Shown here one piece after another: positions 3,064 through 20,066 of a DNA stretch of 34,228 bases. This DNA is from Patescibacteria group bacterium (GTDB taxonomy: Bacteria > Patescibacteriota > JAHJAL01). The stretch lies in the NCBI GenBank assembly GCA_036795335.1, contig DAIREY010000001.1, positions 1-34,228 on the forward strand, read 5' to 3'. The position numbers were made by a program, and so were the translations under genes. The stretch's first letter is position 1; the number at the start of each line of letters is the position of its first letter. The notes under the pieces were generated by a model. The model was given only the letters and a program-made list of their open reading frames with translations. It ran no database searches and had not been told where the DNA came from.

Positions 3064-6000
3064 TTATTCAACTATGTTCATGACCCATCTATTTTGTCCA
3101 TTGAATCGAACCAGTTCTACCTTCCGAATAAAATTTCCAAGATTGTCTTTCATGTCATACATAAAATCATTGTCTTGTTCATTTTTTGTGTTTAATCCGA
3201 GTTCTGTTTTGATCTGGCTCGTAAGTTGATTCAGCGGAATGAACCCTCTTACCGGAAAATTTACATCAATTCCGATTATTTTATCATTATTATTTGCATC
3301 TCTTCTCCAGGCAAAACTGGTCGGCTTGATTTTGGCGCCCGGAAGTTCAAATTTGTATCGAAGTCTGGCAACCGGCCAATCGCCATTATTGGACTTTTCA
3401 ACCAAAATCTCAAAATTTGCTTGCTCTTCATCACTCATAAACTCTGCCGCATTGCTTCCGTTAATCAAAAAGATATAAGCTTTATCATTGTTAAGATGCT
3501 TAACATGATAAACATAACGTTTTTTGTCTTGTTTCCATCTGCTTTCAATCAGCCAATCTTCCGTATCAAAGATAAATTTGTAGTTATTATTGAGCACATG
3601 ATCAAAGACAATTTTTTCGTTGGCGCGGATCGCGTATCGAAGAATATTGGGCTTACGTAGTGCTTGCGGATTGGCGGTTAATAATTCGGTAATAATTTTA
3701 TTGCAGGGTAACTGATTATCAACGACTAATAATTTTTCCAAAACCTCAATTTGTTCTTCTTTGGTAGCAAAATGTGGTAAGGCATCAAAAATCACATCTT
3801 TGGCATCGGGATATTTTGCCAGTATGGCCAGTGATTTTCCGGCATTTTTGGCAAAAAGATCAATGACAACTTTCTTGTATTGAGATGGTTTTGGTTTTAA
3901 ATATGACATGAATAGTTTTGACATATTATCATTTTCCAAATGCTCCAACAAACTTGGTTTGTCGATTAAGACTTCTACAATACCGAGATCATCAAATGGC
4001 AGGATATCTGCTATTTTTTTGAAATAAATTATTTGTTCTTGATCACTTAGAAGGTTCAATTTATTTATAGCTATTTTGGCAGTAAAACTATTGAGCGTTG
4101 TATCAAGTATTACTTTTACTTCTTCCGGTTTGGTGATTCTGTTCATCAACTCGTGCCGACATATGTTTGATTTTAAAACATAAATATAAATCAAAATGTT
4201 TGATAGGATTTCCGGGTTGTTGGCCACTTCTTCGACTAAAAATTTCTGCAATTGTTCGTGCTGAATGTCATTGCTATTTTTGTCCGTTTCTCTGATAAAT
4301 TCTTCTATCAAATTTACCTTTGATGCGGCATCAAAATTGCTTAACGTTTTGATAAATAAATCAGTGGCATTTTGGTGGTTCATTTTTAACAATTTTTTGG
4401 CTTTGTCTTCCGTTTGAATATGCCGTCTGATGACCGAATAAATAGTTGAATCAACTAACTCATCTTTGTAATTTCCCGCCCGGAAATCATTTGTGATGAA
4501 TTCTCCAATAAGCATTGCATTATTAAGAACAGCATTGATTTGTTGAATTTTTTGGGGTGCTTGCGTGGGATATTTGTTCTCGATAAATTTTCGACATTTT
4601 GTCACATCTCCATCCGCCCACGCTCCAAATACCAAATCGGAGATTTGATATTTGATAGCTTTTTCGAAAAATTGATTATGATTGAGCAAATCACTCCTAA
4701 GATAAAATACTTTTTCGAGATTTTTTTTGTTTATCAATCCCTTGTCTTCCAATTTATCGATGATCTCGGCGGCAAAAAGTTCTTCTTCATCGGTAATTTT
4801 GTCCAAAATTATTTTTGCCGTGTCTTCATTGACATATTTTAAACTTTTTACAATTTTTTCCGGACAATCCATCCAGCTCGTAATAGTGTCGGTAAATTGA
4901 TGATCAAAAGCATATTTTATTACATCAGCTTTGTCTAGCGAAATAATATTTTGACCTAATAAGCTGCTGAAATCCTTTTCTGATAACAAATTTTTGTCAA
5001 TCAATTTTAGAGCGACTTCGGTCTGATCTTTTTGGTCAAATTCAGCTGATTTATTTAATATGATACTGACTGACTCTTTATCAACATATTCCAGCGTTTT
5101 ATCTAATTTATCTCGATTATCGATCCAATCTTCAACCAATTTTCTGAATTGATTATCATTAATAGTCCTTTTTAATATAGTTTCGTCATCAAATTTCAAA
5201 TATCCTTTTTCGATTAATTGATGCAAATTCTGCCAATATATGTGAGATTTTGTCCAACAAATATTAGCAATTTGTCCTCTGATACTAGGATCAAATGCCT
5301 CCAAATTATGAATTATTTGATCCAGTTTTTCTTTGTGAAGACAGTTGATTATTTCTACGACCTCACTTTGATCTTTGGCTAAATCTTTAATTTTTTCTAT
5401 TAATTCCGGACCATTGTTGGCGATATGTCCTTTGTACCAAATTTCGTTCCTGGTTTTCTTAGGTAATTTATCGAGGAATTTATCAAAATTTCCTCCCTTG
5501 ATCTGCTGCTCAATGAGCATTCGAGCTAATTCTATTTTTTCCTCGGCTGGTAATTTTTTTAGATCACATGTGCCAAGTAATTCATCGGCACTGGCCGGAC
5601 TGTATTTGCAGATCAATCGCAACTGATCATTCGTGTATTTTTTTAATGCATGATCTCTAATATATTCTTGAAAATGATACTTTGAAAAACTATTGGCAAA
5701 TATATTTCCTACATCTTCTGACTCCAATATCTCAGGGTTTTTCAAAACAAATAAGTAATAATCCTCATCAGTCAATTTAAATTGAGAATACATTTTTCCG
5801 ACCAATTTTGCTGAAAAATTATATTTCTCGATTGTCATTTCCATGTATCTTACATATCTGTTGGAATTATATATAGCAGTATAATAAGCATCATTCTGTG
5901 TATGATAAATATTAAATCTAATTGATCGGATGTAGTCATTGATTTTCTCTTCATTGCTAAATTTATCGGCCCATTTCAAAATCTTTGCATATTCCAAGGC

Positions 6001-9000
6001 TTTGAGATATCGACCATTTACGTTGTCGATATATAATTTATTTAACACTAATTCTTCCTTCTGTTCCAAAGTCACTGATGGTAGATCGCTTATCATCACA
6101 TCTACTATAATATTTTGCAATTTTTGCAATTTGGATAGGGAGCTTTCCGCATAGGTTGACCCATGAATATTTTTTCCTACCCACTCGTTGAATTCCTGAT
6201 AACTCGTATATCTTGCTAGTCGATTTGAAATTTCATTCATATCTATCTTGGCGCCAGTTTTGGTATATTGTTTTTCCATATCGAGATAAAGCGTTTGCAT
6301 CAATTTTTTTATTTCGTTGATGTAATTTATTGTTGGATTCTTCGCACTATCCGGTTGAGCAGAATTTTTTTGATCTTCTGTCTTAAAGTAATCATATAAA
6401 TTTTTGACCAAATCATCCAAATGATGACAGCTGGGTTTTAGATCACCAAATATTTGTTGCCAATCTTGGCCTTTTTCTATTTTTCCCTTCATCCAATCAA
6501 AAATTATCTTCTGACATTTGGCCGAAGCCTTGTGCCGAACAAATTCAAAGACGTTTTGATCATCGAGCAATAAATGATTGTTGTTTATTTTTGTTGCTAA
6601 CAAATCAATCAAATTATTCATTTTTTCGCCGAGTATCTGGTTTACTCCCTCATCTGTTTCTGTTTCATTGATTAATTTTACCGCTGAGTAAAAATATTTT
6701 TTTATCATTTGCCCGTTATTGGGATCAATGTCTTGTTTCTCGATCTTGAAATTCAAAAGGCCGACTATGATTTCATTGTATTTTGGATGATTAACTTCCA
6801 TACTCTCCAAAATGGCTGTCATGTCTTCCACTAACTTTATTTTTCCTTCCTGACTACTTTTGTAGTATTTATTTTTTAATATCAAATAATTACTATAAAC
6901 ATCCGGATAATATTTTTCGACTATCTCTACAATCTGATTGTTGAGTTGAGTTCTTTTGGTGCCGGCGGAAAGTGTTGTCGATTTCAGATTGGTGACGATC
7001 CACTCGATCAATTGATGATTTTTGGCGATCAATTCTCCCTCAGTATCAAATTTCAAAATATGTCTATCCAGTATTTTTTTGATCGATGCTTCATCGATTT
7101 TTTGACCGGAGGCCAAGAAATGTTTCTCTAATTCACGGATAATTTTTTCGTACTGCAAATTTCCCAATTCATTTAACAATAATTGCTTCTGTTCATCATT
7201 GGTTTCATACTCTGCCAGTAGTTGCAATATTTGTTCCTTCTTTCGGACATCTGTGACTGACTTATCTTGCAAATTTCGCAACAGCCGACTGAGCTGATCC
7301 CAATTTCGAGCGATATCGTCCTTGATCAAAACATGATTTCTGGATAGAAATTTCAACAATTTTTCCATCAACAGTTGGTTGTAATTGTTTTTTAAACTGG
7401 CGATAATTTTTTCAAAAACAGCTTTTTGCTGATCCCATTCGCATCGATCAAGAATACTTTCCAGTTCGCGTTGAGAAAAGTCTTTTTCGGTGGCAGGAGC
7501 TTCTTTGGAAAAATCGAAATAATATTGAGAATCATTGCCAAAACGCATTTCAACCGGCAAGTCCAACTTTTTGCCGGTAAGTCGGGAAAAAATTAATTGT
7601 TTGTATTTGGCAAACTGAGCGGAATTAAAATTATTGAAAATAAAATTTTCCAAAGCGCGTATACTATTTTCATCATTCCAATCAATTTTTTGCCATAAAG
7701 CCATAATATTTCGTTCATCCGCATCACAATCGGATAACAACTGAGGAAGATAGACATCAATATTATCGCTCATCATATGTAAGATTTCAGAATAAAGAGT
7801 ACTGTTGGGATCGATAATATTTAATATGTTGGCTTCGATCACTAATTCGGGTCGATTGGTCTGTTTGACGATTTCATAAAATTCCGGCAGAAATTGATGC
7901 AAATTTTTGTCATTGGTGTAAATCACGTACAGCTCGCGACACATGGCGGCGGTCAATTTTCCGGCCAAACTATTGAGTACCAGGCGAAAACGGTCGTTGG
8001 TTATATGGACACCGTCTAAATACTTTTGGGGATCAAATGCCCACATGATAAATACCGGGACAAAATCTTCTTGATTGTCGATATTTCCCATATTTTCCGG
8101 GGTGAATTCAACCGTTGCATTTGGTTGGTGATCATCCCCTTTCGCGGGAATATGGTCATCATGATCAATAGTGCCTTTGATACCGGCATAGTCATCGTAC
8201 AGACCATCCGTATTTGTTTCAATAAGGACAGGTGTTTCAACAATCGCATCGCCGACGGATGGTTTTTTCAATACTTTGTCGATATATTGCACCATCTTAT
8301 TAAACTCCATCACATCATGCAAATTGTTCAAATCGTATGCCGCTGATAGTAATGAAAATAATTCGAAAAATAATACCCGTAGACCATCGTAGTCCTTTTT
8401 CTTTTCCAGCTTTCGAATACGTCGTATGTATTCTTTGTATAGTCGTGTATCGCGGTACACTCTGATATTTTTTGTTTCTTTTTCAAATTCTTCTCGACTG
8501 ATATGCCGGCGTTTTATAGCATAAAAAGCTACTCGTCCCATTTGTTGTAAATCTTTTGAATCGGTTTTGTCACTCAACTCGTGCTGTTGATTGTACATCA
8601 AGATTTGCAAATCTAACTTATTTTTTAGAATATCAATAAATTCCGGCGAATACATTTCATAACTGCTAAATTTCAATATGCCCCCTACTCGCAGATGATC
8701 AAGAATTCTTTGCCAAACTTGTTTGACTGTCTCATTTTCGTTTTTGTCATACTTGGCAATATCACCCCAGCTGGAACATTCGATTAAATCAAAATCTTTT
8801 TTTTCTAGGTCAAAATTTCGAGCATCACCAACGATATCGTATTCGGTACAACAATCGGCAATATTTAATCCTTTTTGTTTCATCTGTGCTCGACTGGCTT
8901 GATGCATCAATGGTGAAAAATCCAAGCTATATATTTCCGGCAAAGCAGTAATTTCCTTTTTTTCCAGCAGTTGTCCATAGGCGCGCAACTCTTCATGCGG

Positions 9001-10518
9001 ACCGCTGGCAACGGACAAGATCGATTTGATCTTGTCGGAAAGCCCTTGCTCTCTGATGTATTGAATTCCTTTTTCATGAATTTGTTGATGACGACCGCCC
9101 TCAATAAATTTGACGTAGCCTTCGCACATCCATTCCGGAAAAGGAACGCCCGGATTGCTGCGAATAAAACGTTCGAAGTCTTGGAAAAACAATCTGCATT
9201 CCGGGACCATCCGACCTTTTTCGCCAGCTTTTTTGCCACTTTTCGGTGAGCCAATCTTGATGAGATTTGGCGTATAAGCGCCGGTAATTGTCGTGTTTCC
9301 ATTTACAATATTATCTTTTATGCTCGCACCAAAGTCTTTAATATTCGGGTTTTCACCTCTTTCCAGCCGGCCAAAGAACAAATCTGTTTGGCTCGGGTTG
9401 TTTGCCAGTTCTCGTTGTTCTTTGGTCAATGGATAACTGAATGATTGGCGGAATCGAAAGTCGATTTCGTATTCGTTGGTATTGATTGTCTTGGCCAGCT
9501 CGGGTTTTCTTTCTTGAAAAAAATTGTACAGTCTTTTTCTTAAAAACTGATTGAAATATCTTTTGCGAACATCTAAGTGGATACTTTCCGTTTCGTCTTT
9601 GTCGTATTTTTCCAAATATTTTTGGGCTTTTTGTACGGCATTTTTTCTAATTTCTTCTTTCTTTTCTTGCAAAAGTTTTTGTTTGTCGGCGGTATTGGTT
9701 TGGGCATCAATTAAAGATTGCGGGTAAGTTTTATTAACTTCTTGTTCGGCTTGGACCATAGTATCTTCAAATAAATTTGTGACATTTTGTCCATTTTTTC
9801 GATTTTTAAAATCAAAATATTTTAGAGTCAAAAGATCGATGTTGGCATTTATTTTCGACAATAACTCATTGGCTTTGTTCATAACCAATGAAGTTTCTTT
9901 TTCATCCAAATCAAAATTTATCGATTTGTCCTTTTCGGCCGGATTGAGTTTTGTAAACGCCAAAACACCTTGAGGCATCTTATGCCCTTTGGTTCCTTTG
10001 GTGTGTTTGAGAAATGTTTCAAAACTTGGTTTGTGATATTCACCGCCCAGTCGGCGAGACCAAATATTTAATTCTTTATATTCACAATTTTCCGGTTGCA
10101 AAATATGAATTATTTCATTAATTTTTTTCTCGTCGTTATTATCTATTACGTTGACAAAGGCATTGGACAATAGCCAGATGTTTTCCAAATTACCTTTGGT
10201 GACATCCAATTCGTTTGTCAAAGCATCGCCGCCGGTAAGCTCATTGATCCACCTGCTGTCATGAAAGTATAATCCTATTTCACTGAGTTTTGCTTCGGGA
10301 AATATTTGGTGAAAGGTTTTTATTTGCGCACAAGACAACAAGGTGCCGTTGACTCTTAAAAAGTCCGTGAGTTGTTTATCGTCATATTGATTTTCTTTAA
10401 TTTCCGGGTACCATTTTTTGAGCAGAGTTGTCTCAGCTTCCTCGTAATTGGCAGTTTTTTTGTGATTTAATTCTTGCAAACTTAATCTTTCTTTCTTGCT
10501 TATTTTGTCTTGGTCCAT
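3064..10518 (-). CDS. Giant protein 1 (2484 aa): conserved N-terminal module with a SAM-MTase-like fold, long helical repeat region, small C-terminal domain. Family unknown.
   Basis: Uninterrupted 7.4-kb ORF in AT-rich DNA. Paralogous to 14764..19416. No signal peptide or TM seen. Own promoter and terminator. Confidence 0.9.
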   Translation of the reverse strand: MDQDKISKKERLSLQELNHKKTANYEEAETTLLKKWYPEIKENQYDDKQLTDFLRVNGTLLSCAQIKTFHQIFPEAKLSEIGLYFHDSRWINELTGGDALTNELDVTKGNLENIWLLSNAFVNVIDNNDEKKINEIIHILQPENCEYKELNIWSRRLGGEYHKPSFETFLKHTKGTKGHKMPQGVLAFTKLNPAEKDKSINFDLDEKETSLVMNKANELLSKINANIDLLTLKYFDFKNRKNGQNVTNLFEDTMVQAEQEVNKTYPQSLIDAQTNTADKQKLLQEKKEEIRKNAVQKAQKYLEKYDKDETESIHLDVRKRYFNQFLRKRLYNFFQERKPELAKTINTNEYEIDFRFRQSFSYPLTKEQRELANNPSQTDLFFGRLERGENPNIKDFGASIKDNIVNGNTTITGAYTPNLIKIGSPKSGKKAGEKGRMVPECRLFFQDFERFIRSNPGVPFPEWMCEGYVKFIEGGRHQQIHEKGIQYIREQGLSDKIKSILSVASGPHEELRAYGQLLEKKEITALPEIYSLDFSPLMHQASRAQMKQKGLNIADCCTEYDIVGDARNFDLEKKDFDLIECSSWGDIAKYDKNENETVKQVWQRILDHLRVGGILKFSSYEMYSPEFIDILKNKLDLQILMYNQQHELSDKTDSKDLQQMGRVAFYAIKRRHISREEFEKETKNIRVYRDTRLYKEYIRRIRKLEKKKDYDGLRVLFFELFSLLSAAYDLNNLHDVMEFNKMVQYIDKVLKKPSVGDAIVETPVLIETNTDGLYDDYAGIKGTIDHDDHIPAKGDDHQPNATVEFTPENMGNIDNQEDFVPVFIMWAFDPQKYLDGVHITNDRFRLVLNSLAGKLTAAMCRELYVIYTNDKNLHQFLPEFYEIVKQTNRPELVIEANILNIIDPNSTLYSEILHMMSDNIDVYLPQLLSDCDADERNIMALWQKIDWNDENSIRALENFIFNNFNSAQFAKYKQLIFSRLTGKKLDLPVEMRFGNDSQYYFDFSKEAPATEKDFSQRELESILDRCEWDQQKAVFEKIIASLKNNYNQLLMEKLLKFLSRNHVLIKDDIARNWDQLSRLLRNLQDKSVTDVRKKEQILQLLAEYETNDEQKQLLLNELGNLQYEKIIRELEKHFLASGQKIDEASIKKILDRHILKFDTEGELIAKNHQLIEWIVTNLKSTTLSAGTKRTQLNNQIVEIVEKYYPDVYSNYLILKNKYYKSSQEGKIKLVEDMTAILESMEVNHPKYNEIIVGLLNFKIEKQDIDPNNGQMIKKYFYSAVKLINETETDEGVNQILGEKMNNLIDLLATKINNNHLLLDDQNVFEFVRHKASAKCQKIIFDWMKGKIEKGQDWQQIFGDLKPSCHHLDDLVKNLYDYFKTEDQKNSAQPDSAKNPTINYINEIKKLMQTLYLDMEKQYTKTGAKIDMNEISNRLARYTSYQEFNEWVGKNIHGSTYAESSLSKLQKLQNIIVDVMISDLPSVTLEQKEELVLNKLYIDNVNGRYLKALEYAKILKWADKFSNEEKINDYIRSIRFNIYHTQNDAYYTAIYNSNRYVRYMEMTIEKYNFSAKLVGKMYSQFKLTDEDYYLFVLKNPEILESEDVGNIFANSFSKYHFQEYIRDHALKKYTNDQLRLICKYSPASADELLGTCDLKKLPAEEKIELARMLIEQQIKGGNFDKFLDKLPKKTRNEIWYKGHIANNGPELIEKIKDLAKDQSEVVEIINCLHKEKLDQIIHNLEAFDPSIRGQIANICWTKSHIYWQNLHQLIEKGYLKFDDETILKRTINDNQFRKLVEDWIDNRDKLDKTLEYVDKESVSIILNKSAEFDQKDQTEVALKLIDKNLLSEKDFSSLLGQNIISLDKADVIKYAFDHQFTDTITSWMDCPEKIVKSLKYVNEDTAKIILDKITDEEELFAAEIIDKLEDKGLINKKNLEKVFYLRSDLLNHNQFFEKAIKYQISDLVFGAWADGDVTKCRKFIENKYPTQAPQKIQQINAVLNNAMLIGEFITNDFRAGNYKDELVDSTIYSVIRRHIQTEDKAKKLLKMNHQNATDLFIKTLSNFDAASKVNLIEEFIRETDKNSNDIQHEQLQKFLVEEVANNPEILSNILIYIYVLKSNICRHELMNRITKPEEVKVILDTTLNSFTAKIAINKLNLLSDQEQIIYFKKIADILPFDDLGIVEVLIDKPSLLEHLENDNMSKLFMSYLKPKPSQYKKVVIDLFAKNAGKSLAILAKYPDAKDVIFDALPHFATKEEQIEVLEKLLVVDNQLPCNKIITELLTANPQALRKPNILRYAIRANEKIVFDHVLNNNYKFIFDTEDWLIESRWKQDKKRYVYHVKHLNNDKAYIFLINGSNAAEFMSDEEQANFEILVEKSNNGDWPVARLRYKFELPGAKIKPTSFAWRRDANNNDKIIGIDVNFPVRGFIPLNQLTSQIKTELGLNTKNEQDNDFMYDMKDNLGNFIRKVELVRFNGQNRWVMNIVE
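4621..5127 (-). repeat. Two tandem 84-85 aa protein repeats within giant protein 1
   Basis: WIDNRDKLDKTLEYVDKESVSIILNKSAEF...LKLIDKNLL aligns with WMDCPEKIVKSLKYVNEDTAKIILDKITDE...EIIDKLEDKGLI. Confidence 0.6.
8590..9030 (-). other. Class-I SAM-dependent methyltransferase-like domain inside giant protein 1
   Basis: ILSVASGPHEE (motif I-like), IYSLDFSPLM (acidic end of beta2), FDLIECSSW (beta4), LRVGGILKF (post-II), in canonical order and spacing. Confidence 0.6.
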
Positions 10519-10551
10519 GGCAAATATATATGAAAAAATAAATTCCCAAAA

Positions 10552-10580
10552 AATATATCATCAAATACCTAAAAAGTCAA
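10552..10580 (-). promoter_or_regulatory. Sigma70-like promoter of giant ORF 1
   Basis: Minus strand TTGACT (10580..10575), 17 nt, TATATT (10557..10552). The ATG lies about 34 nt downstream, with no SD. Confidence 0.55.
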
Positions 10581-10592
10581 CCGCTATTTTAC

Positions 10593-10617
10593 AAAAAAAT
10601 AGCAGCCGAAGCTGCTA
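10593..10617 (-). terminator. Intrinsic terminator of the 148-aa gene
   Basis: Minus strand tagcagc-ttcg-gctgcta followed by ttttttt. Confidence 0.7.
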
Positions 10618-10629
10618 ATTAAAATATTT

Positions 10630-11076
10630 TTAAAAACTGGAAATGTGACCAATGTATTTTATTTCCAGCATTGATTCCTCTCCGGTCTTTCCAAACCCCA
10701 GAGAGTTTGACAATTTTGTTTTTTCATTTTTGTCAAAGAATTCACCTACTTTGGCCTTTCTTTGACCCTCAGAAATATACCAGTCGATTATCGTCGCGGT
10801 TTCAATCTTAATTCCGCAACTTGCAGTATAAATATGCAGATATTTGCTACCTCGATGACTGGGATAGCAAACTACATAATTTTTTTCCGATGGTTTACTT
10901 GTATCATCAGGTGTAGAAGATTTGCTTTTATTTATCATTGCAAAAATCTTCTTGGACAACTTTGTTTTATGCTCAGCGATATCCCAATGTTTTACTTTTC
11001 CGAGCATAATCACTTTTTTTAATTCTGGTATATACCAGATTTGTCCCTTAAAGGCATCTGTGACGTCGTCTTTCAT
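10630..11076 (-). CDS. Hypothetical protein (148 aa)
   Basis: Strong SD (AAAGGGGGCAATGACAA-ATG), own terminator, no recognisable motif. Confidence 0.7.
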   Translation of the reverse strand: MKDDVTDAFKGQIWYIPELKKVIMLGKVKHWDIAEHKTKLSKKIFAMINKSKSSTPDDTSKPSEKNYVVCYPSHRGSKYLHIYTASCGIKIETATIIDWYISEGQRKAKVGEFFDKNEKTKLSNSLGFGKTGEESMLEIKYIGHISSF

Positions 11077-11176
11077 TTGTCATTGCCCCCTTTTTTTTTA
11101 AAAATTCAGATGTTTGCACACTGTCAAGATATACAAAATATCAATAATAGTCAATGATTTCATTACACGATTCAAT

Positions 11177-11214
11177 AAAAAACAAAATAGCCTATTATTT
11201 GCATAATAAGCTAT
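11177..11214 (-). terminator. Intrinsic terminator of the 290-aa gene
   Basis: Minus strand atagcttattat-gcaa-ataataggctat followed by tttgtttttt. Confidence 0.65.
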
Positions 11215-11228
11215 TTAAAAAATGGTCG

Positions 11229-12092
11229 CTATTTTAGTTTTCCGAGCATCTGTTTGCTTTCGGCAATCAACGTCTCGAAAAATTTCTTTTTGAAAATATC
11301 CAAATTATCCTCCACCTCCTCGATAGTCAAATCCCTGGTGGGATTTTTTTCTATAACAGGAGGGGGTGAAGTTGTTGTTTCGACTTTAATTGGCAACGAT
11401 TCACCGCGGACAATACTGATGATTTCATCGTCAGTAAAATCATAAGTCTCGCCCTCTTCATTTTGCCATTCGATTTTCTTGCTTACCGGTTTATTTTCGG
11501 GAATATTATCAATAACCGTATCGATAATATTAACCCGAAAGTCGTCAGCGTTGTTGCTTGATAGAAAATCAAACAACTTGCTGCGAGTAAGCAACATCGG
11601 TTCAAGGTCTTTTTGGTTTACAAAGACCACCTCGAACTGATTTTTCTCTTTTCTCGGTTTGCACTTGTTGATGATGCCGAATTTATACATTTTTTGCATA
11701 AATTGGCATAATTCAACCGTCCTTTTGTCTGAGACGAAATAAGAATTTATTTCGTCAGCGCTTGGCATCTGATGGAAATTTTTACCCCAACCAATCACTC
11801 GCAGGTAAAAATTCTTTTCCATTTTGTCGATATCTCTTTTTGGCTGCAAAGTGATTTTTTCGGTTTCTTTGCAGTCTTTGAGAGTTTCATTGACGATATT
11901 CGTTACATAGCGGATATCCATCTTGATACAATCCGCTAGCAACAAACCCAGGAATCTCTCCTCGATTTCTCTTGGAAAGACTTTCTTAACTGGACGGGTG
12001 AGATATTCTCCCGCCTCCAAAAACGAGAGCATATATTTTAAATTTTTCTCAACGATGCTTTTGTAAGCATCGATCTTCTTTACAACTTCCAT
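11229..12092 (-). CDS. Hypothetical protein (about 287 aa)
   Basis: TAAGGAGGT SD lies 9 nt before ATG 12092 (MEVVKK...). The ORF-track TTG at 12101 is too close to the SD. No recognisable motif. Confidence 0.75.
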   Translation of the reverse strand: MEVVKKIDAYKSIVEKNLKYMLSFLEAGEYLTRPVKKVFPREIEERFLGLLLADCIKMDIRYVTNIVNETLKDCKETEKITLQPKRDIDKMEKNFYLRVIGWGKNFHQMPSADEINSYFVSDKRTVELCQFMQKMYKFGIINKCKPRKEKNQFEVVFVNQKDLEPMLLTRSKLFDFLSSNNADDFRVNIIDTVIDNIPENKPVSKKIEWQNEEGETYDFTDDEIISIVRGESLPIKVETTTSPPPVIEKNPTRDLTIEEVEDNLDIFKKKFFETLIAESKQMLGKLK

Positions 12093-12149
12093 TAATATCA
12101 AACCTCCTTAAATTTTTAATATTGCAAATTTTACTAAAAATTGTAAATA

Positions 12150-12163
12150 ACAAACGTGTTTGT
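12150..12163. promoter_or_regulatory. Palindrome ACAAAC-GT-GTTTGT in the divergent 290-aa/uvrB control region
   Basis: Perfect 6+6 inverted repeat, flanked by direct repeats ATTGCAA(A)TTTTACT at 12121..12135 and 12254..12267. Confidence 0.4.
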
Positions 12164-12196
12164 GTCAATAACAATTCTCCTCCTTTTTGAAAACCA

Positions 12197-12226
12197 TTGA
12201 CAATATGTAAAAAATAATGTTAGTGT
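12197..12226 (+). promoter_or_regulatory. Possible uvrB promoter
   Basis: TTGACA (12197..12202), 18 nt, TAGTGT (12221..12226). The -10 is weak. Confidence 0.35.
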
Positions 12227-12268
12227 AAAATTTGGTATAAATATTTTTTTACAATTGCAATTTTACTC

Positions 12269-14275
12269 ATGTCCAATCAATTCAAACTAAAATCTCCCTA
12301 TACGCCGACCGGTGATCAACCGCAAGCGATCGCCCAATTGGTGCAAGGTATAAACAAAAAACAAAAATTTCAAACTCTGAAAGGAGTGACCGGTAGCGGT
12401 AAAACTTTTGCCATGGCCAATATTATCGCCCAAATCCAAAAACCAACTTTGATCATTGCTCACAACAAAACCTTAGCAGCTCAGTTGGCGCAGGAATTCA
12501 AAGAATTTTTTCCGGAAAACGCCGTTCATTATTTTGTCAGCTATTATGATTATTATCAACCGGAAGCATATATTCCATCCACCGACACCTACATTGAAAA
12601 AGATTCATCTATCAATGAAGAAATTGATAAGCTGCGCCACGCCGCCACTTCCAGTCTATTGCTCCGCCAGGACGTAATTGTGGTAGCTTCGGTGTCTTGT
12701 ATCTACGGCATTGGCAGTCCGGAATTATACAAAAAGACCAGCATTCCTATCAGCCGTGGTCAAAAAATCAATCGTAACGACCTTGTCCGCCGGTTGATTG
12801 ATATCCAATATCAAAGAAATGACATTGATTATCATCGCGGCACTTTCCGAGTTCGTGGCGATATTTTGGAAATATGGCCACCGTATGAAAACAACGGATT
12901 TATGATCGATTTCTTTGGCAACACAATTGATTCCATCAAACAAATCGATGGACTGACCGGGGAAATAATGGCGGTTCATGAAAGCACAATGATTTTTCCC
13001 GCCAAACATTTTGTGACTGCCAAAGAAGATATCGCGGCGATATGTGACCAGATCCGCGCCGACCAAAAAAAAGAAGTGTCTATTTTACAGCAACAAAATA
13101 AATTAATTGAGGCACAACGACTGGAGCAACGAGTAAATTTTGATTTGGAAATGATCAAAGAAACCGGATATTGCAATGGAATAGAGAACTATTCGCGCTA
13201 TTTTGATCATCGTCGGCCCGGCCAAGCACCCAATGTCTTGCTGGATTTTTTTCCCAAAGATTACTTGATGTTTATCGATGAATCGCATATCACCGTGCCA
13301 CAAATCGGCGCCATGTTCAATGGCGACAAAGCACGCAAAGACATGCTGACCACACACGGCTTTCGACTGCAAGCCGCTTATGACAATCGGCCACTTAATT
13401 TTGCTGAATTTGAGTCGAAGATAAATCAAGTAATTTTCACTTCGGCCACTCCCAGCGAATATGAAAAACAACATTCCAAATACATGGTTGAACAAATCAT
13501 TCGTCCTACCGGTTTGTTGGATCCGCCGATTGAGGTGCGTCCCGCCACCGGCCAAATCGACGACTTGATCGCCGAAATCCGTTCGACAGTCAAAGCCAAA
13601 CATCGCGTGCTGGTGACGACTCTGACCAAGCGTCTGGCAGAAGAATTGACCGAATACCTACAAGAGATAAACATTAAAGTCCAATATTTGCATAGCGACG
13701 TGGATACGGTAGAACGAATTGAAATATTACGTGATTTACGATTGGGAAAATACGATGTCTTGGTAGGAATAAATTTGTTACGAGAAGGACTGGATTTACC
13801 GGAGGTTACTCTGGTGGCTATTCTTGATGCTGATAAAGAGGGTTTTTTGCGATCGGAAACAGCCTTGATCCAAACCATCGGTCGGGCCGCCCGCCACGTC
13901 GAAGGTCATGTCATCATGTATGCCGACAAAATCACACGTAGTATGCAAGCAGCCATCGACGAAACTAACCGCCGTCGCGACATCCAATCCGCTTATAATA
14001 AAGAACATGATATCACTCCACAAACAATTGAATCCAAGATCAAAGAAATGGGACTGACTTCCAAAAAATCCAAAGAAAAACAAAAACGTTATGGCCAGCC
14101 GATTGACTGGGAGCAGATTGATGAATATACCCCGGACGCGATTGACCGACTGATTGCCACCAAAGAGAAAGAGATGGATTTGGCCGCCCGCAATCTCGAA
14201 TTCGAAAAAGCGGCCGAAATCCGTGATGACGTGGAAGAACTAATTTTGATTAAGAAAAATAAAAATAGAAAATAG
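12269..14275 (+). CDS. uvrB: Excinuclease ABC subunit B (UvrB)
   Basis: PTGDQPQAI, Walker A GVTGSGKT, YVSYYDYYQPEAY, DESH box (IDESHIT), helicase C motifs (LREGLDLPEV, QTIGRAAR), and C-terminal UVR motif EFEKAAEIRD. Confidence 0.97.
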   Translation: MSNQFKLKSPYTPTGDQPQAIAQLVQGINKKQKFQTLKGVTGSGKTFAMANIIAQIQKPTLIIAHNKTLAAQLAQEFKEFFPENAVHYFVSYYDYYQPEAYIPSTDTYIEKDSSINEEIDKLRHAATSSLLLRQDVIVVASVSCIYGIGSPELYKKTSIPISRGQKINRNDLVRRLIDIQYQRNDIDYHRGTFRVRGDILEIWPPYENNGFMIDFFGNTIDSIKQIDGLTGEIMAVHESTMIFPAKHFVTAKEDIAAICDQIRADQKKEVSILQQQNKLIEAQRLEQRVNFDLEMIKETGYCNGIENYSRYFDHRRPGQAPNVLLDFFPKDYLMFIDESHITVPQIGAMFNGDKARKDMLTTHGFRLQAAYDNRPLNFAEFESKINQVIFTSATPSEYEKQHSKYMVEQIIRPTGLLDPPIEVRPATGQIDDLIAEIRSTVKAKHRVLVTTLTKRLAEELTEYLQEINIKVQYLHSDVDTVERIEILRDLRLGKYDVLVGINLLREGLDLPEVTLVAILDADKEGFLRSETALIQTIGRAARHVEGHVIMYADKITRSMQAAIDETNRRRDIQSAYNKEHDITPQTIESKIKEMGLTSKKSKEKQKRYGQPIDWEQIDEYTPDAIDRLIATKEKEMDLAARNLEFEKAAEIRDDVEELILIKKNKNRK

Positions 14276-14312
14276 ATATATTAATGAAAACTAAATAATT
14301 ATTGCATAACCA

Positions 14313-14341
14313 TTGACAAATATATAATCTATGTCTACAAT
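14313..14341 (+). promoter_or_regulatory. Sigma70-like promoter of the 108-aa gene
   Basis: TTGACA (14313..14318), 17 nt, TACAAT (14336..14341). Confidence 0.6.
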
Positions 14342-14387
14342 CTAGACATTAATTTTGAAAATTTAAAAAGAAAGGAAGATGATATAA

Positions 14388-14714
14388 ATGGCTATAGACA
14401 GTAATGTCATTATTGCTGGATTTCAGAATGCCATCATAAAAATCGGAGGACACCTGCAAGTCCTCCCCGATATAGTTAATGGTATATCGGAGATAAAGAG
14501 TCTTTTGAATCAGTTAATACAAAATTCAAAAGATCAGTTACCAAGCCATGCTGATCAAAATGGCAAAAGCTATATTGACAGCGTGATGGAAAAAATGACC
14601 CAAACGGGTCAAGTCTATTCCGAAAACCTGGCGCTCAAAAAACATAATCATGAGCTCCAGGAAAAAATCAAACTCCTCGAACAGGAAATCGAAAAATTGA
14701 AAAAAGAGGAGTAA
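14388..14714 (+). CDS. Small coiled-coil protein (108 aa)
   Basis: SD AAAGGAAG 9 nt before the ATG. C-terminal heptad-like LQEKIKLLEQEIEKLKKEE. Own promoter and terminator. Confidence 0.75.
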   Translation: MAIDSNVIIAGFQNAIIKIGGHLQVLPDIVNGISEIKSLLNQLIQNSKDQLPSHADQNGKSYIDSVMEKMTQTGQVYSENLALKKHNHELQEKIKLLEQEIEKLKKEE

Positions 14715-14720
14715 AAAAGT

Positions 14721-14762
14721 AAAATCTCAATGATATTAAATTATGTCATTGAGATTTTTTTT
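14721..14762. terminator. Bidirectional intrinsic terminator between the 108-aa gene and giant ORF 2
   Basis: aaaatctcaatga...tcattgagatttt: 13-bp stem followed by a T-run, with an A-run on the left for the minus strand. Confidence 0.8.
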
Positions 14763-14763
14763 G

Positions 14764-17700
14764 TTATTTCGTTACCTTGAAAATCCAATTTCCGTCATTA
14801 TCCAATTTTTCATATCTAAGTTTTATAGCATTCAAAGAAGCAATATAGCCTTTCGATCGGATATCATCCAAGAATTTTTCCGGAAAATCATCGCGATGGA
14901 TAAAGCCAAGTCGTTTATTGTTGTCTCTGGCTTCCAATCCGCATACCGTTCCATGCTCATCTAAGGTCAAATAACAATCATTATTACATATATCGACAGT
15001 TGTATTAATTAATTTTCTTTTGTCTAATAAATTAACTCCTATGTCTGAAGAATTTTTCAGAATAACTTGTAGTTCATAATATTTTTTATCTTCGGATTTA
15101 ATTTTGCAAAAACTGTCTTCTCCATTAAAAATTTTTACTACTCTTTTACCCCCCTCCGGCCGTTTCAAGTAATAATTATTTTTTCCTATTTTTTCTATAT
15201 CCCAATCTTTTAGATTCAAAACCAGCTTGTTTTTTAGCGCGATATAAAATAAATCTTTTGGACAAAAATCTGTCAGGCAACTAAAGCTTTCGGGATAGAT
15301 TTGCAGGCTAGGATTATTTGCTGCCACTCTCATAAAGAATGATCTTGTGTGTTTGTTGTAATGTTTTTTGAACAATTGAGCGAAAATATTAGATCTTAAT
15401 GAATTTTCTTGTTTATGAATGACCAAAAATAATGCTAGTGTTAATCCTTTTTCTCCTTGATCGGCCAGATACAAGATATCATCAGTAGAGTGAATATCTA
15501 ATAGTATCGCCACATCTATTGCTTGATTGTTGTAGTTCATCGCTTTACGCAAAATTGTGCTATTATGAACTGCTTTGGGGAAAGCAGAGATGAAATGTAA
15601 AAATTTCTGTTGGTCAAAGTCTCGCAATGTATTCTGTAAAATTTTGGTTGCCGTTTTGTTGTCACAATTACTTATCATGCTGATTTTTTCAAAATTTTCT
15701 CCTACCCAATCAACTACCTGTGCCAAATTTTTAATCGATAAAATTTCTTGGCCGATCAGTATATTTGTTGTTTCTTTGTGCAACAATAAATCCATATTAT
15801 TGATCATTAAATTATTAATTTCAACAATATCGAATTGTGCTTTTACTTTCCAATTTTTGTCCGATGTGGATCTGGTAATCTTTCTCGCCAAAAACATTAT
15901 TTTGCGGTAGTCACTGGGATATTTTTCCAAAATTAGTTCTAATATTACATTATCAAACTCGTCTATTTTGGCTGTCGTTGGATCGTCCAAATTATTTTCC
16001 TGATAGCTCAAATATCTACCGGCCAAAAAATCGATCAATTCTGAATCATCCGACATTAATTTATTGAATTCATCAGTGACAACTTCTCTATCGATTACAT
16101 TATTACTTTTTTCTAAATGATTAATTTTGAAATCATTATATTTTTTTATCATGATTTCCATTTCAATTTTGTGAATTTTATTTTGAATCTCATCCAAATA
16201 GCCGCTATCCTGAAAAAAATATTTCTCCACAAATTTATATGCTTTCAATTTATTTGAGTTTTCCAAATTTTCCACCAACAATCCAAAACTGGTCACAAAA
16301 TTATCTACACTATCTGATGATGGTTTTTCGTTCTCAAAGATATTTATCATCTTTATAAAGTAATTTTTCAAGTCATCGGGCAAATCTTCGGAATTAGTCA
16401 TTTTTAAGACTTGTTGATTGTAAATACGTTTACTGAATATATCCAACAAATCACCTTTCAATAACTTATTTGGTATATTAATATTTATATTTTTCGGAGC
16501 ATTATTCATGATTATTCTGGCATATTTAGTCATATTTTTTTCATCAGTTTTTTCCGCCAAAAATTTATTGACTAATTCAACCGTATTATTATTTAACCAA
16601 TCAATATTCTGGATATAGGCTTTCTTAATTTCCTCATCGATATTTGAACTAAACAAAACATCAGCCAAAAATAATTCCGGAAACTTCAACATCATCTGCC
16701 AAACTTTCTTTCTTAATTCATTATTGCCTTTTACCAACGGCCATATTCGCGCATCATACACTAACTGAATTCTATCCACCGAATTTTCAATCAAACTCAT
16801 TATTTCCGGAAGCAAAACGGCTAATTTGCTATTTTCCAAACATTTTTGATACAATTTTTGGCAAGATTTCAGATCCAAATAGCCCACCAATTCGGTCAGC
16901 ATCACTTTTATCTGGTCCAAACTCAAGGAGTCACTTTGTACATGTAATTCAATATTCTTAATCGCTTCCAAATATATTTGAATTTTTACTTGTTCGGCTT
17001 TTTTATCCTTGCGCTTTTTTTGCTGCTTCCAATCTTGGCGAAAATCATTGATTGCGTTTAGTAAATTTGACAATTCGTTTGCTTCTTTTTCCAAACCTCT
17101 TTTTTGGCACTCGGTGCGATAAATAACAATCGATAATTCCAAATATTTCAAATTTTCCAAGTCTTCCTTGGCAAATAGTTTTGTTATTTCTTTGTAAAAA
17201 ATATCATGCAAATTGTTATCATCATAAATTTTGACATGGCTCATTTTCTGCTCATATTCAGCTAGCGAAACATCTCTGGTCTTAATTCCCTTGAACCAAA
17301 CGCGCGGTTTATCAATTCTTTTTTGTTGATCTTTGTGATTGCTATATTTCTCATCAATGTTGTATTCCAAAATTTTCATATCCAAATCATTGGTCAAGAC
17401 ATCGATAAACTGTTGGTTGTATCTTTTGTAACTATAAAAACGGATAATACCGCCATTTTTTAAATGTTGCAGTGATTTGTACCACATCTTTTTTACCACT
17501 TCTTCTTCGTTCTTGTTGCCATGGGTATCTTTCGAGAATTGAGCAATATCATCCCAACTGGAGCATTCAATCATGTCAAAATCTTTTTCTGACAAATCAA
17601 AGTTTTGCGCATTGGTATTTGGCAAATCTATGCCTTTATCAAAAATGTCCAATCCATTTTCTCTCATTTGTTCTCGACTAGAGGAGAGCATAGATTCTGA

Positions 17701-19416
17701 CAAATCAAGACTATAAATCTGGGGTAATGTTAAACTCGGATTATTTTTCACGTAATCCGCATACACTCTTAATTCTTCGTGCGGCCCACTACCCAAGGAC
17801 AATACTTTGCTGATGTTTTGCAGATAATTTCCATCCGGATGGCGATGCAAATATTCTAATCCCGATCGATGTTCATAGATGAAAGAACTTTTTTCCACCG
17901 CCCATTTGACATATCTATCCGCAAATTCACTTGGCCACGGTATTTCCGGATTTTTTCGTAAACGAGCCATGTCTTGCGCCAACTTGTAGCCGCCATTTAT
18001 CTGTTTCTTGGCATCCGGAAATTCATTGGCTTTTTTGTAAGCTTTGACCAAGCTCCCCGGATCAGCTCGATCGATGATAAAATTTTCATTGATCGGTTCG
18101 AGAGTTGATCCCGTATTCACTTTGGATTCAATAACGCTTTGGTCAATATATTTAGCTAATTTGTCTGAGCTTCCGGCTATTTCCGCATTTTTCTTATCCA
18201 TACCAATGTTTTTCTTCTGAAAAAAACGTAAGTCAAATTCAAAATCATTCAATTTGCCACTTTTCAGAATGGAATGACCATCTTCTTTGAAAAATTTGTA
18301 CAACAAATTCTTGATCCGTTTGTTGAAATAATAATTTTTGGCTTCTTTCCTGATTTTTTGATATTTCTTCTTATTTGAAGACATTGACTCTTCTGTTTTG
18401 GGCAAATTATCGGTATCTCGTTCATCGTTCCAATCCTGTTCGTCTATTTTATTTTTTAAATCACAAATATATTTGCCAATCAACATACTGGCTTCTTTTT
18501 TTATCCCCTGAATATTCTTGTGTTGCTCAGTCAATAACTCCCGGCTGTCGTTATTTATTTCAAACTCCAAACAATCTTGAAAATTATTCAGATATTTATC
18601 ATGTTTTTCTCGACAATCAATCACGTTTTTTCTGATTGATTCGTCCTCAATTAGATCTGGATTTCGGTAGAGAAAATCTATGACTAATTCATGAATATTT
18701 TCATTTAATTCATTCGACAATGATCGGACTTTATTGAACATCAGTGTTGTTTCAAATGGATTCAAAGCGATATTCCGAACTTGATTATTTTTTTTGTTTT
18801 TAACTTGAACGGTAGCACTCGGAATCTGAAAATCAATCTCTGTCTTTTCCGAATTCTCCATATCGGTCATTGCATCGGCAAAAAAAGAATATGAATGTGG
18901 TTTGTGAGTTTCATCCAATTTGGTTGTCTGAATGATAGCGGCGTTGTCGGGTTTGCTCTTCGTTTTATTGATGCAGTCGGTAATATTTTCCACAACTTTT
19001 TTTGGCTGTGAAGCAGACAGATTAGTTTGAAAAGCATTAATAATAGTCCAGGCACTATCACAATTTGGTTTGGAAATCTTTTCTACTCCGGGTTTGTTGC
19101 CACTATTGAATTTTCTCTGTTTCAAAAGCTGCTCAATCCATTTTGCACTTTCTTCTTTTTCCTGATTTTGAAACATGGATTTAATCTCCGCAAAATTGCG
19201 ACTCGGAAATGATTGACGCAACACGTCAATTTCCGCTAGCGACAACTGAATGCCAAAAAGTTGAAAAATGTCTTGCCTTTGTGCTTCGGAAAAAAATTTA
19301 GTTTCCGGATACCACTTATTTAGCATTCTTTTTTCGGTCGCATCATAAAAAGTACTCTGCTTTTTCATTGCCTCGCGTATTTGCAGTCTTGAGCGATTGC
19401 CTTTTTCTATATTCAT
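14764..19416 (-). CDS. Giant protein 2 (1550 aa), paralog of giant protein 1
   Basis: Shared blocks with 3064..10518: KWYPE, YFN..(I/L)(R/K)..LY.FF, (E/D)F(E/R)(I/F)D(F/L)RF, SGPHEELR, IYSLD, NFDL.EKDFD.IECSSW.DIA, FID.L...LD..IL.YN, and a C-terminal F..NG..F and ..G.W.... end. Confidence 0.9.
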   Translation of the reverse strand: MNIEKGNRSRLQIREAMKKQSTFYDATEKRMLNKWYPETKFFSEAQRQDIFQLFGIQLSLAEIDVLRQSFPSRNFAEIKSMFQNQEKEESAKWIEQLLKQRKFNSGNKPGVEKISKPNCDSAWTIINAFQTNLSASQPKKVVENITDCINKTKSKPDNAAIIQTTKLDETHKPHSYSFFADAMTDMENSEKTEIDFQIPSATVQVKNKKNNQVRNIALNPFETTLMFNKVRSLSNELNENIHELVIDFLYRNPDLIEDESIRKNVIDCREKHDKYLNNFQDCLEFEINNDSRELLTEQHKNIQGIKKEASMLIGKYICDLKNKIDEQDWNDERDTDNLPKTEESMSSNKKKYQKIRKEAKNYYFNKRIKNLLYKFFKEDGHSILKSGKLNDFEFDLRFFQKKNIGMDKKNAEIAGSSDKLAKYIDQSVIESKVNTGSTLEPINENFIIDRADPGSLVKAYKKANEFPDAKKQINGGYKLAQDMARLRKNPEIPWPSEFADRYVKWAVEKSSFIYEHRSGLEYLHRHPDGNYLQNISKVLSLGSGPHEELRVYADYVKNNPSLTLPQIYSLDLSESMLSSSREQMRENGLDIFDKGIDLPNTNAQNFDLSEKDFDMIECSSWDDIAQFSKDTHGNKNEEEVVKKMWYKSLQHLKNGGIIRFYSYKRYNQQFIDVLTNDLDMKILEYNIDEKYSNHKDQQKRIDKPRVWFKGIKTRDVSLAEYEQKMSHVKIYDDNNLHDIFYKEITKLFAKEDLENLKYLELSIVIYRTECQKRGLEKEANELSNLLNAINDFRQDWKQQKKRKDKKAEQVKIQIYLEAIKNIELHVQSDSLSLDQIKVMLTELVGYLDLKSCQKLYQKCLENSKLAVLLPEIMSLIENSVDRIQLVYDARIWPLVKGNNELRKKVWQMMLKFPELFLADVLFSSNIDEEIKKAYIQNIDWLNNNTVELVNKFLAEKTDEKNMTKYARIIMNNAPKNININIPNKLLKGDLLDIFSKRIYNQQVLKMTNSEDLPDDLKNYFIKMINIFENEKPSSDSVDNFVTSFGLLVENLENSNKLKAYKFVEKYFFQDSGYLDEIQNKIHKIEMEIMIKKYNDFKINHLEKSNNVIDREVVTDEFNKLMSDDSELIDFLAGRYLSYQENNLDDPTTAKIDEFDNVILELILEKYPSDYRKIMFLARKITRSTSDKNWKVKAQFDIVEINNLMINNMDLLLHKETTNILIGQEILSIKNLAQVVDWVGENFEKISMISNCDNKTATKILQNTLRDFDQQKFLHFISAFPKAVHNSTILRKAMNYNNQAIDVAILLDIHSTDDILYLADQGEKGLTLALFLVIHKQENSLRSNIFAQLFKKHYNKHTRSFFMRVAANNPSLQIYPESFSCLTDFCPKDLFYIALKNKLVLNLKDWDIEKIGKNNYYLKRPEGGKRVVKIFNGEDSFCKIKSEDKKYYELQVILKNSSDIGVNLLDKRKLINTTVDICNNDCYLTLDEHGTVCGLEARDNNKRLGFIHRDDFPEKFLDDIRSKGYIASLNAIKLRYEKLDNDGNWIFKVTK
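17359..17815 (-). other. Class-I SAM-dependent methyltransferase-like domain inside giant protein 2
   Basis: VLSLGSGPHEE, IYSLDLSESMLSSSREQMRENGL, FDMIECSSW, LKNGGIIRF. Confidence 0.6.
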
Positions 19417-20061: not shown

Positions 20062-20066
20062 ATTAT

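Follow-up and report, generated by a model that had tools for sequence, protein, structure and literature searches.

What two exceptionally long genes contribute to a small, reduced genome is the question raised by a 34,228-nucleotide stretch of DNA from a Patescibacteria group bacterium (assembly GCA_036795335.1, contig DAIREY010000001.1, positions 1 to 34,228), referred to here as the window. Two minus-strand open reading frames (ORFs), A and B, encode proteins of 2484 and 1550 aa and together account for 35.4% of the window, with a canonical uvrB lying between them (12269-14275, plus strand; 1038 bits against the NCBIfam equivalog). An initial annotation, made from the sequence alone, had described them as giant paralogs flanking uvrB, with no family that could be named; its ORF coordinates and lengths, its share of about 35% of the window, the position of uvrB and the monocistronic layout were all borne out. 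Our analysis indicated that both proteins share a head with a predicted divergent class I S-adenosylmethionine (SAM)-dependent methyltransferase (MTase) domain, behind which long orphan bodies extend. The host was assigned to the Patescibacteria (Candidate Phyla Radiation, CPR) on the identity of two window proteins to those of one Patescibacteria metagenome-assembled genome (L011, JBAZOB010000021), namely 77% for UvrB, all other matches of which were at or below 61%, and 68% for the tryptophanyl-tRNA synthetase TrpRS. Patescibacteria genomes are about 1 Mb in size. About 12 kb is spent here on two paralogs of one family, and so large an outlay of coding capacity in so reduced a genome suggests that A and B matter to the organism.

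The relationship between A and B was examined by BLASTP, which aligned residues 9-716 of A with residues 8-759 of B at 28% identity (E 1e-76) and joined A842-978 to B834-971 in a second colinear block (E 3e-11). The head paralogy is judged real on these alignments and reaches about residue 980, in agreement with the paralogy proposed earlier for the first 900-1000 aa, and the motifs then noticed by eye (KWYPE, SGPHEELR, NFDL.EKDFD.IECSSW and LPE...IDW) were all found in the BLASTP alignments.

At about residues ~440-720 of A and ~475-760 of B, the head was found to carry the motifs of class I SAM-dependent MTases, read as ILSVASGPHEE, IYSLDFS, VGDAR, DFDLIECSS and VGGIL in A and as VLSLGSGPHEE, IYSLDLS and DFDMIECSS in B. 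The initial annotation had seen no nucleic-acid enzyme motif; a lack of recognisable enzyme motifs altogether was not borne out, and its conserved catalytic-looking head was substantiated as a predicted MTase domain. Pfam gave sub-threshold class I MTase matches to A528-615 (Methyltransf_25/12) and B537-619 (Methyltransf_31/25/11). An AlphaFold2 model of A298-723, made from the family alignment, had a predicted local distance difference test (pLDDT) score of ~90 over the MTase domain, in which strands (E202-206, 231-236, 262-266, 279-284, 312-322, 340-348 and 366-372 of the model) and helices alternated in a Rossmann-like manner. When this model was searched against the PDB with Foldseek, 835 matches at E<=0.001 were obtained; among the matches listed, all were class I methyltransferase folds, covering many substrate classes (Rv2258c, StiD O-MT, METTL6, Bud23, RebM and NNMT). 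A PDB sequence-profile search likewise returned BH2331 and other Methyltransf_11-type MTases (E 4e-5). The same kind of search with alignment A5 also matched ribosome hibernation promoting factor (HPF; 2ywq, 6gzx and 6gzq; E about 1e-4) at profile positions 170-227, corresponding to the cap and motif I (A residues ~467-524); these matches were rejected as probably spurious, since the model is helical here and its secondary structure disagrees with an HPF fold.

The family around A and B came to light only in an exhaustive HMMER search. With the head profile, 32 proteins at E<=1e-3, 25 of them at E<=1e-10, were detected among 1.84 billion (1.84e9) representatives, and A and B were joined at E 1e-22 to 1e-46 to members that exceed Pfam gathering scores. 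The word-index search, which missed the family, was nearly blind: A as query returned itself only, alignments A1 and A5 returned P0021 and P0022 only, and the relatives seen in this way were A, one fragment and one Lloydbacteria protein with PF01209 and PF08241. No relatives were found when the genome contig collection was scanned with the MTase core, and a metagenome scan added only 2 new loci. Every named member was from the Patescibacteria/CPR (Patescibacteria, Lloydbacteria, Yanofskybacteria and Azambacteria). The database names were 'class I SAM-dependent methyltransferase [Patescibacteria group bacterium]' (MEX0896333.1) and, for the Azambacteria and Yanofskybacteria relatives, 'Methyltransferase type 11 domain-containing protein'. 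No paper on these accessions or this family was found in the literature.

Stronger MTase matches were obtained for these relatives. P0028 exceeded the Pfam gathering scores of Methyltransf_11 (32.6 vs 21.2) and Ubie (26.1 vs 20.1), as P0035, P0026 and P0024 likewise exceeded gathering scores, and among the 28 family members scanned with Pfam, Methyltransf_25 matched 19 and Methyltransf_11 matched 16. The family core reads n.lQ...A...G.W......Y.....PQY.EHR in its helical region, followed by ilSvASGPhEE at motif I (S, G and P invariant), P...nlD.s..ML at motif II, gDmr..p at motif III, fD.vECSS.Dnl at motif IV and then lk.GG..R. The motif II Asp was invariant in all 21 aligned members, and this residue, together with the invariant S-x-(A/G)-S-G-P..E and D..ECSS, was kept in both A and B. 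The NCBIfam equivalogs UbiE/MenG and BioC did not match A or B, and P0028 remained far below their cut-offs (28.4 vs 184.95 for BioC, 26.2 vs 158.35 for MenG_MenH_UbiE). Taken together, the Pfam scores of the relatives, the fold search, the PDB profiles and the failed equivalogs establish the predicted head domain, at the level of fold and superfamily, as a divergent SAM methyltransferase with the class I Rossmann fold and of Methyltransf_11/25 type; they establish neither subfamily nor substrate. Profile searches thus placed the two proteins in a characterised group at the superfamily level only, with no characterised family or function that applies.

The architecture of the head was defined by tiled phmmer searches among the family proteins and by alignments A6 and A7. 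A conserved head of ~1,000-1,100 aa was present in A, B and the long members (1,000-1,825 aa: P0024, P0025, P0028-31, P0033 and P0038), in the order N-terminal domain of ~125 aa, variable linker, pre-MTase helices and cap, MTase, and post-MTase helical domain. Of these parts, the short members (~590-750 aa; Azambacteria, Yanofskybacteria and Lloydbacteria) have the cap and the MTase alone. The AlphaFold2 model of the A N-terminal domain had a pLDDT of 77.6 with a core of ~90, and Foldseek found no match for it in the PDB (best E 2.9) or BFVD (best E 3.2); it was therefore treated as a putative uncharacterised all-alpha domain with no known structural relative. A sigma-70 region 4 identity was considered for this domain from weak signals, namely a full-length colinear alignment to the PDB profile 1tty_A (E 0.12) and a Pfam Sigma70_r4 match on P0025 only (E 0.0028; 17.6 bits vs 24.1), and was rejected, the fold search having returned neither a sigma factor nor a classical helix-turn-helix protein. 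Behind the pre-MTase helices, residues 101-140 of the A298-723 model had pLDDT <50 and represent a linker. The post-MTase domain has the family motif KLDLP..MRF...YF.FS. Its most conserved part (LP...KLDLP..MRF...YF.FS), profile positions 182-237 of alignment A7 (A residues ~985-1040), resembled the EF-hands of calbindin D9k/S100 at E 0.0075-0.04, which was too weak to use.

Behind the head, the rear extension was about 1,400 aa long in A and 550 aa in B, so the variable helical body of very different length that had been described holds as an architecture. Both bodies are putatively mostly helical. Beyond residue ~1100 of A and ~1010 of B, tiled phmmer against all family proteins found no homolog even within the family, and the bodies had no match in Pfam, NCBIfam, PADLOC or PHROGs. 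The A body contains a tandem repeat (Smith-Waterman 118 vs shuffled 32.2+-5.9; 0/1000 shuffles as high), which was missed by BLAST self-comparison and found by a windowed Smith-Waterman scan that also hinted at one more, possibly third, copy upstream. By the same two methods, no comparable internal repeat was detected in B.

A strain variant of A, P0008 (locus L092, 2057-9490), revealed a cassette within the body. The two genes are essentially nucleotide-identical in the head, where 1000 codons hold 2 differences, and in the tail. Over the cassette, amino acid divergence was roughly 46% for residues ~1501-1709 and about 25% for residues 1710-1809, and the three windows at residues 1501-1809 gave nonsynonymous divergence (dN) of 0.15-0.38 and synonymous divergence (dS) of 0.64-2.2, with dN/dS about 0.17-0.24. 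This is the signature expected of an imported, recombined divergent allele rather than of local hypermutation, and the cassette appears to be under purifying, not positive, selection.

Each rear extension ends in a weakly similar tail of ~180 aa. The claim that A and B align again in their last 150 aa stood in part. The last 400 aa gave nothing significant by BLASTP (best E 0.09; colinear tail alignment E 2.3), but Smith-Waterman scores were 60 for the last 170 aa (shuffled 32.7+-5.5) and 66 for the last 260 aa (shuffled 36.7+-5.6), which none of 1000 shuffles reached in either case (z about 5). The A tail scored 65 against the B tail only, and 36-41 against other B segments. The similarity of the tails is terminal and colinear, and the tails appear at best weakly conserved.

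Genes of this size with orphan bodies and low G+C (0.30-0.35) might be artefacts, either chimeras of the assembly or long ORFs that arose by chance in AT-rich sequence. Such an origin can be regarded as already refuted. The A and B proteins, exact or as variants >90% identical, recur in at least seven independently assembled contigs, and identical or near-identical full-length A/B were found in GCA_964590045.1, GCA_029567205.1, three JGI metagenomes and one Logan run; an assembly chimera, against which the initial annotation had asked for a check, is therefore excluded. P0021, a partial ortholog of A that a related organism carries and that has 76% amino acid identity, gave dN 0.14, dS 1.66 and dN/dS 0.084 over 589 codons, and A is therefore under strong purifying selection. 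The significant similarity between the paralogs also argues against an artefact, as does the cassette, in which the reading frame is intact despite the divergence and dN lies far below dS.

What was known already can be separated from what is new. The catalytic domain belongs to a very well-known superfamily, and its relatives carry generic methyltransferase names. Undescribed are the multi-domain family built around the MTase, along with its N-terminal domain, its post-MTase domain and the orphan bodies, to which extent the pair did lack a family that could be named. New features are the family of 32 representatives with all named ones from CPR, its ECSS signature, an N-terminal domain for which no match exists among the structures searched, and orphan bodies of giant size, with a cassette that recombines.

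Judged by the arrangement of neighbours and by the terminators, A and B are predicted to be separate transcription units. Promoter-like sites were located where TTGACA-N17 promoters had been claimed, with TTGACA itself before B and TTGACT before A; across the region as a whole, such sites showed no excess over shuffled sequence. The A site falls just past the terminator of the upstream gene (10617-10577). A hairpin with a T-run was confirmed at each 3' end, that of A having an 11-nt loop too long for the hairpin scan and hence being read directly in the sequence. Among the window gene starts inspected, no Shine-Dalgarno site was present before A, B, uvrB or trpS. The lack noted earlier for A and B is thus correct, but usage in the window is mixed, with a clear site before only about 7 of 21 ORFs, for example strong GGAGG-type sites before ORFs 11229-12101, 20601-20864, 20959-21375 and 24469-25317. 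The coordinates of all features are collected in the table.

Coordinates of A and B, their predicted domains and their flanking signals in the window
Feature	Position	Strand	Basis or remark
ORF A (HPN67030.1), 2484 aa	3064..10518	-	Giant family member; exact protein in several independent assemblies
A aa 1-130, N-terminal all-alpha domain (KWYPE / LS..I / FP motifs)	10129..10518	-	Alignment A6; common to long members
A aa 301-440, pre-MTase helices (YFN..LY.FF, E.D.RF), then low-confidence linker	9199..9618	-	Alignments, AlphaFold2
A aa 441-720, helical cap and predicted class I SAM-dependent MTase domain	8359..9198	-	Pfam (weak), AlphaFold2, Foldseek, PDB profile
A aa ~800-1100, post-MTase helical domain (C.ELY, LPE, KLDLPVEMRF..YYFDFS)	7219..8121	-	Common to P0025, P0027, P0028 and P0029
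A aa ~1101-2301, orphan body	3616..7218	-	No homolog outside own 90% cluster
A aa ~1510-1810, strain-variable mosaic cassette, ~300 codons	5089..5991	-	Comparison with strain variant P0008/L092
A aa ~1788-1965, tandem repeat, ~85-90 aa helical unit	4624..5157	-	Smith-Waterman
A aa ~2302-2484, C-terminal tail	3067..3615	-	Weak similarity to B tail (z about 5, 0/1000 shuffles)
Promoter-like site of A, TTGACT-17-(TG)TATATT	10552..10580	-	About 33 nt upstream of ATG
Terminator of A, CCACCACCG-11 nt-CGGTGGTGG then T-run	2989..3027	-	Read directly in the sequence
ORF B (HPN67035.1), 1550 aa	14764..19416	-	Paralog of A; identical protein on 7 contigs from different samples
B aa 1-130, N-terminal all-alpha domain as in A	19027..19416	-	BLASTP, tiled search, alignment A6
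B aa 346-762, pre-MTase helices, cap and predicted MTase domain	17131..18381	-	BLASTP, weak Pfam, motifs
B aa ~828-1010, post-MTase domain, more diverged than that of A	16387..16935	-	BLASTP, tiled search, alignment A7
B aa ~1011-1386, orphan body	15259..16386	-	No homologs, no internal repeats
B aa ~1387-1548, C-terminal tail	14773..15258	-	Weak similarity to A tail
Promoter-like site of B, TTGACA-17-TATGAT	19453..19481	-	About 36 nt upstream of ATG
Palindromic bidirectional terminator between B and convergent 108-aa ORF	14714..14765	.	Scan

The genomic context of A and B was compared with that of related loci. In L011, the closest relative, no homolog of A or B lay within 10 kb of uvrB, and the interval from uvrB to a 110-aa ORF adjoining trpS measured 1.1 kb (11993-13108) vs 9.7 kb in the window (14276-24024). 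Besides B, the extra 9.7 kb of the window comprises the 108-aa ORF, a 697-aa orphan and four small orphan ORFs; neither bounding repeats, apart from AT-rich chance matches, nor an integrase were found for this block. No neighbours were conserved across the window, L007, L009 and L010, and homologs elsewhere lay beside unrelated genes. Moreover, the housekeeping genes next to A and B have a G+C of about 0.40, against a lower 0.30-0.33 for A and B in this comparison. The absence at the L011 locus, the unrelated neighbours, the lower G+C and the plasticity of the bodies together argue that A and B are accessory and plastic genes rather than housekeeping ones, and that their adjacency to uvrB is incidental and without functional meaning. 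A functional linkage with uvrB was accordingly rejected, the uvrB locus of the nearest relative being without A and B genes.

Several neighbouring genes were recorded as well. The one item shared between the loci compared is a Cas4-like PD-(D/E)XK nuclease, encoded at 471-1247 (plus strand) at a distance of 1.8 kb from where A ends; a 62.6% identical ortholog occurs in L009 (GCA_900089805.1, 1866-2633), 5.4 kb upstream of P0031; this could reflect a loose functional linkage or just residual synteny. L009 also encodes a VirD4/TrwB-like coupling ATPase (12323-13963) two genes downstream of P0031, and no such gene was present in the window. The 697-aa orphan (21855-23948, plus strand) is unrelated to A and B, had no match in Pfam, NCBIfam, PADLOC or PHROGs, and recurs in other assemblies, called at 683-697 aa. 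TrpRS (25298-26650, minus strand) carries a C-terminal tRNA-binding domain of ~110 aa resembling MetG C-terminal, CsaA and Trbp111, a fusion that is unusual for TrpRS and is 68% conserved in L011. Two adjacent paralogs (E 1e-18) at 29694-31526 and 31629-32570, both on the plus strand, have Ig-like domains (Big_1, Invasin_D3, fn3 and N_BRCA1_IG); the pair is likely to be at the cell surface and adjoins a PMT_2/EpsG-type glycosyltransferase (27988-29550). Rfam and tRNA scans of the window gave no match.

With respect to localisation, neither A nor B has a segment hydrophobic enough for a transmembrane (TM) helix (best 19-residue Kyte-Doolittle mean 1.27), no signal peptide was evident by hydropathy, both N-termini being hydrophilic, and Pfam detected no adhesion domains in either protein. 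The earlier view that neither protein has a signal peptide or TM helix, and that they are not surface adhesins, agrees with these data, in which nothing typical of a secreted adhesin was seen. Since Sec and TM signals are missing, the two proteins are taken by default to act within the CPR cell. On balance, we favour as probable, though well short of certain, that A and B are separately transcribed CPR paralogs in which an accessory methyltransferase is mounted on a long scaffold, with the MTase in the head and orphan bodies behind it. The head is predicted to bind SAM, with the helical cap packing on the SAM site, and would methylate a macromolecular or envelope-associated target, which may be picked by the cap together with the N-terminal and post-MTase domains. 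Diversifying through duplication and recombination, the long body would serve as a scaffold or as a module for targeting, and A and B would probably act inside the CPR cell.

Some observations weigh against this explanation. A and B themselves fall below the Pfam gathering score (19 and 16 bits vs 27). Class I MTases have the motif I consensus (D/E)xGxGxG after beta-1 and an acidic motif II residue that binds the SAM ribose hydroxyls. Motif I of A and B is atypical, with A/G-S-G-P-H for G-x-G-x-G and Ser replacing the acidic residue; the loop reads LSVASGPHEE in A and LSLGSGPHEE in B, the latter being covered by weak Pfam Methyltransf_31/11 alignments. B is also without the motif III Asp, TN standing in place of GD. 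The Foldseek neighbours of the model are small-molecule, RNA, protein and polyketide synthase-embedded MTases, so no substrate class appears to be indicated. Finally, the putative cytoplasmic location is deduced only from absent Sec and TM signals, and CPR bacteria may export proteins otherwise.

If export of that kind occurred, A and B could be host-interaction effectors or toxin-like polymorphic proteins, in which the N-terminal domain or the tail is a non-Sec export or recognition tag, the route is type IV secretion system-like or pilus-associated, the MTase modifies a host target and the variable body gives host specificity. We consider this doubtful. Patescibacteria are largely episymbionts. 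The combination of a conserved N-terminal module with variable C-terminal parts, the strain-variable recombined cassette and tandem repeat of the A body, the accessory, island-like distribution of a rare and patchy family, and the coupling protein near P0031 would all suit such a role, and the very large proteins of these bacteria are frequently associated with their surface and with contact to the host (PMC13059738). However, signal peptides, TM segments, adhesion domains and toxin or immunity domains are missing, secretion genes are absent from the window, the dN/dS of the cassette speaks for purifying rather than positive selection, and the rest of the family lacks these tails. A 'Cytotoxic' (colicin E3) Pfam match in P0050 was dismissed as a 35-residue partial match in a coiled region, no stretch of which passes alone. 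In a more specific version, A and B would be the largest members of a class of Patescibacteria-specific, Sec-independent effector methyltransferases, with the structurally novel N-terminal domain docking to an export or contact apparatus, the head methylating a macromolecule, of the host or of the cell itself, where episymbiont and host meet, and the repeat-bearing, recombining body acting as a host-range or target-recognition module. This is decidedly unlikely; if true, it would represent a previously unknown way for ultra-small episymbionts to manipulate hosts.

Two further explanations concern the MTase fold itself. A and B might be structural or cytoskeletal scaffolds with the fold as a pseudo-enzyme, in which SAM serves as cofactor or sensor or nothing is bound. 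The atypical motif I, the motif III Asp lost in B, the very large non-enzymatic mass, the absence of an identified substrate-specific subfamily, and the presence of human fatty acid synthase among the Foldseek matches are consistent with this, and embedded inactive MTase-like domains do occur in megasynthases. It nevertheless seems unlikely, as the strongest conservation of the family falls on the SAM-site and active-site motifs (S.ASGP..E, motif II D, D..ECSS, cap W, Y and PQY.EHR), which are kept in both paralogs and in the 600-aa members without the long body, a pattern that argues for a conserved ligand-binding or catalytic function. Nucleic-acid methyltransferases in defence or DNA/RNA processing, with the N-terminal domain as a DNA- or RNA polymerase-binding helix-turn-helix, are very improbable. 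The weak sigma-70 region 4 resemblance, the Cas4-like nuclease near A with its ortholog near P0031, and METTL6, Bud23, NSun6 and MnmM among the Foldseek neighbours point in that direction. They are countered by the N-terminal model, which had no helix-turn-helix or sigma fold match, by the lack of PADLOC matches for A, B or the orphan neighbours, by a motif IV that reads ECSS where DNA MTase motifs (DPPY/NPPY and PC) are absent, by a charge that is not basic (isoelectric point 4.9 for the A N-terminal domain and 5-7 for the bodies), and by the absence of any nuclease, helicase or ATPase partner conserved across loci.

With an accessory methyltransferase on a long scaffold as the favoured explanation, two giant orphans become a defined family with a testable enzymatic core, two conserved uncharacterised domains and plastic orphan bodies. 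The 280-aa MTase core or the ~600-aa short members are a tractable entry for experiments, and the family can serve as a marker for comparative work on CPR lifestyle. Nothing is overturned by the finding, the catalytic fold being among the commonest known.

Among known systems, the MTases of the Methyltransf_11/25/Ubie type (BH2331 1vl5, YcgJ 1xxl, UbiE/MenG and BioC) share with the A/B family the Rossmann-type fold with an N-terminal helical cap, the motif II Asp at the end of beta-2, the 'vGDa..lPf...fD.v.ss' motif III/IV and 'lk.GG', and relatives of A and B pass Pfam gathering scores. The A/B family differs in its motif I, S-x-(A/G)-S-G-P-H-E-E vs D-x-G-x-G-x-G, in the invariant E-C-S-S after beta-4, and in having the domain within proteins of 600-2,500 aa. 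From the UbiE/MenG/BioC equivalogs it is separated by scores of 26-28 bits vs 158-185 and by the lack of a quinone or biotin pathway context. In megasynthases (StiD O-MT 6ecu; human fatty acid synthase pseudo-MT 8eyi and 4piv), which were among the top Foldseek matches, a class I fold also lies inside a giant multi-domain polypeptide; however, no KS, AT, KR, ACP, C or A domains were found by Pfam in A, B or relatives (28 members scanned), and the A and B bodies are orphan sequence, not assembly-line modules. Polymorphic toxins and LXG-type effectors also combine a conserved N-terminal module with a variable C-terminus, paralog pairs and recombination in the variable part, a likeness in layout only. 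Unlike in those systems, neither a trafficking nor a toxin domain can be recognised in A and B, an immunity gene is missing as well, and their conserved part is about 1,000 aa long and itself predicted to be enzymatic. Searches of A and B with Pfam, NCBIfam, PADLOC and PHROGs brought up no toxin domain, and none of those for defence systems, phage families or NCBIfam models gave a match; the downstream ORFs are convergent orphans.

Of the very large CPR proteins, those known to date are targeted by preference to the cell surface and carry signal peptides, TM segments and adhesion domains (PMC13059738). A and B resemble the very large proteins of Patescibacteria/Absconditicoccaceae and other episymbionts, and the giant genes of predatory Omnitrophota (bioRxiv 10.1101/2023.11.21.568195), in being exceptionally long genes of accessory character in a tiny reduced genome and in their repeat- and recombination-driven diversification. 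They differ from the very large CPR proteins in carrying, instead of surface features, a head that is a predicted methyltransferase.

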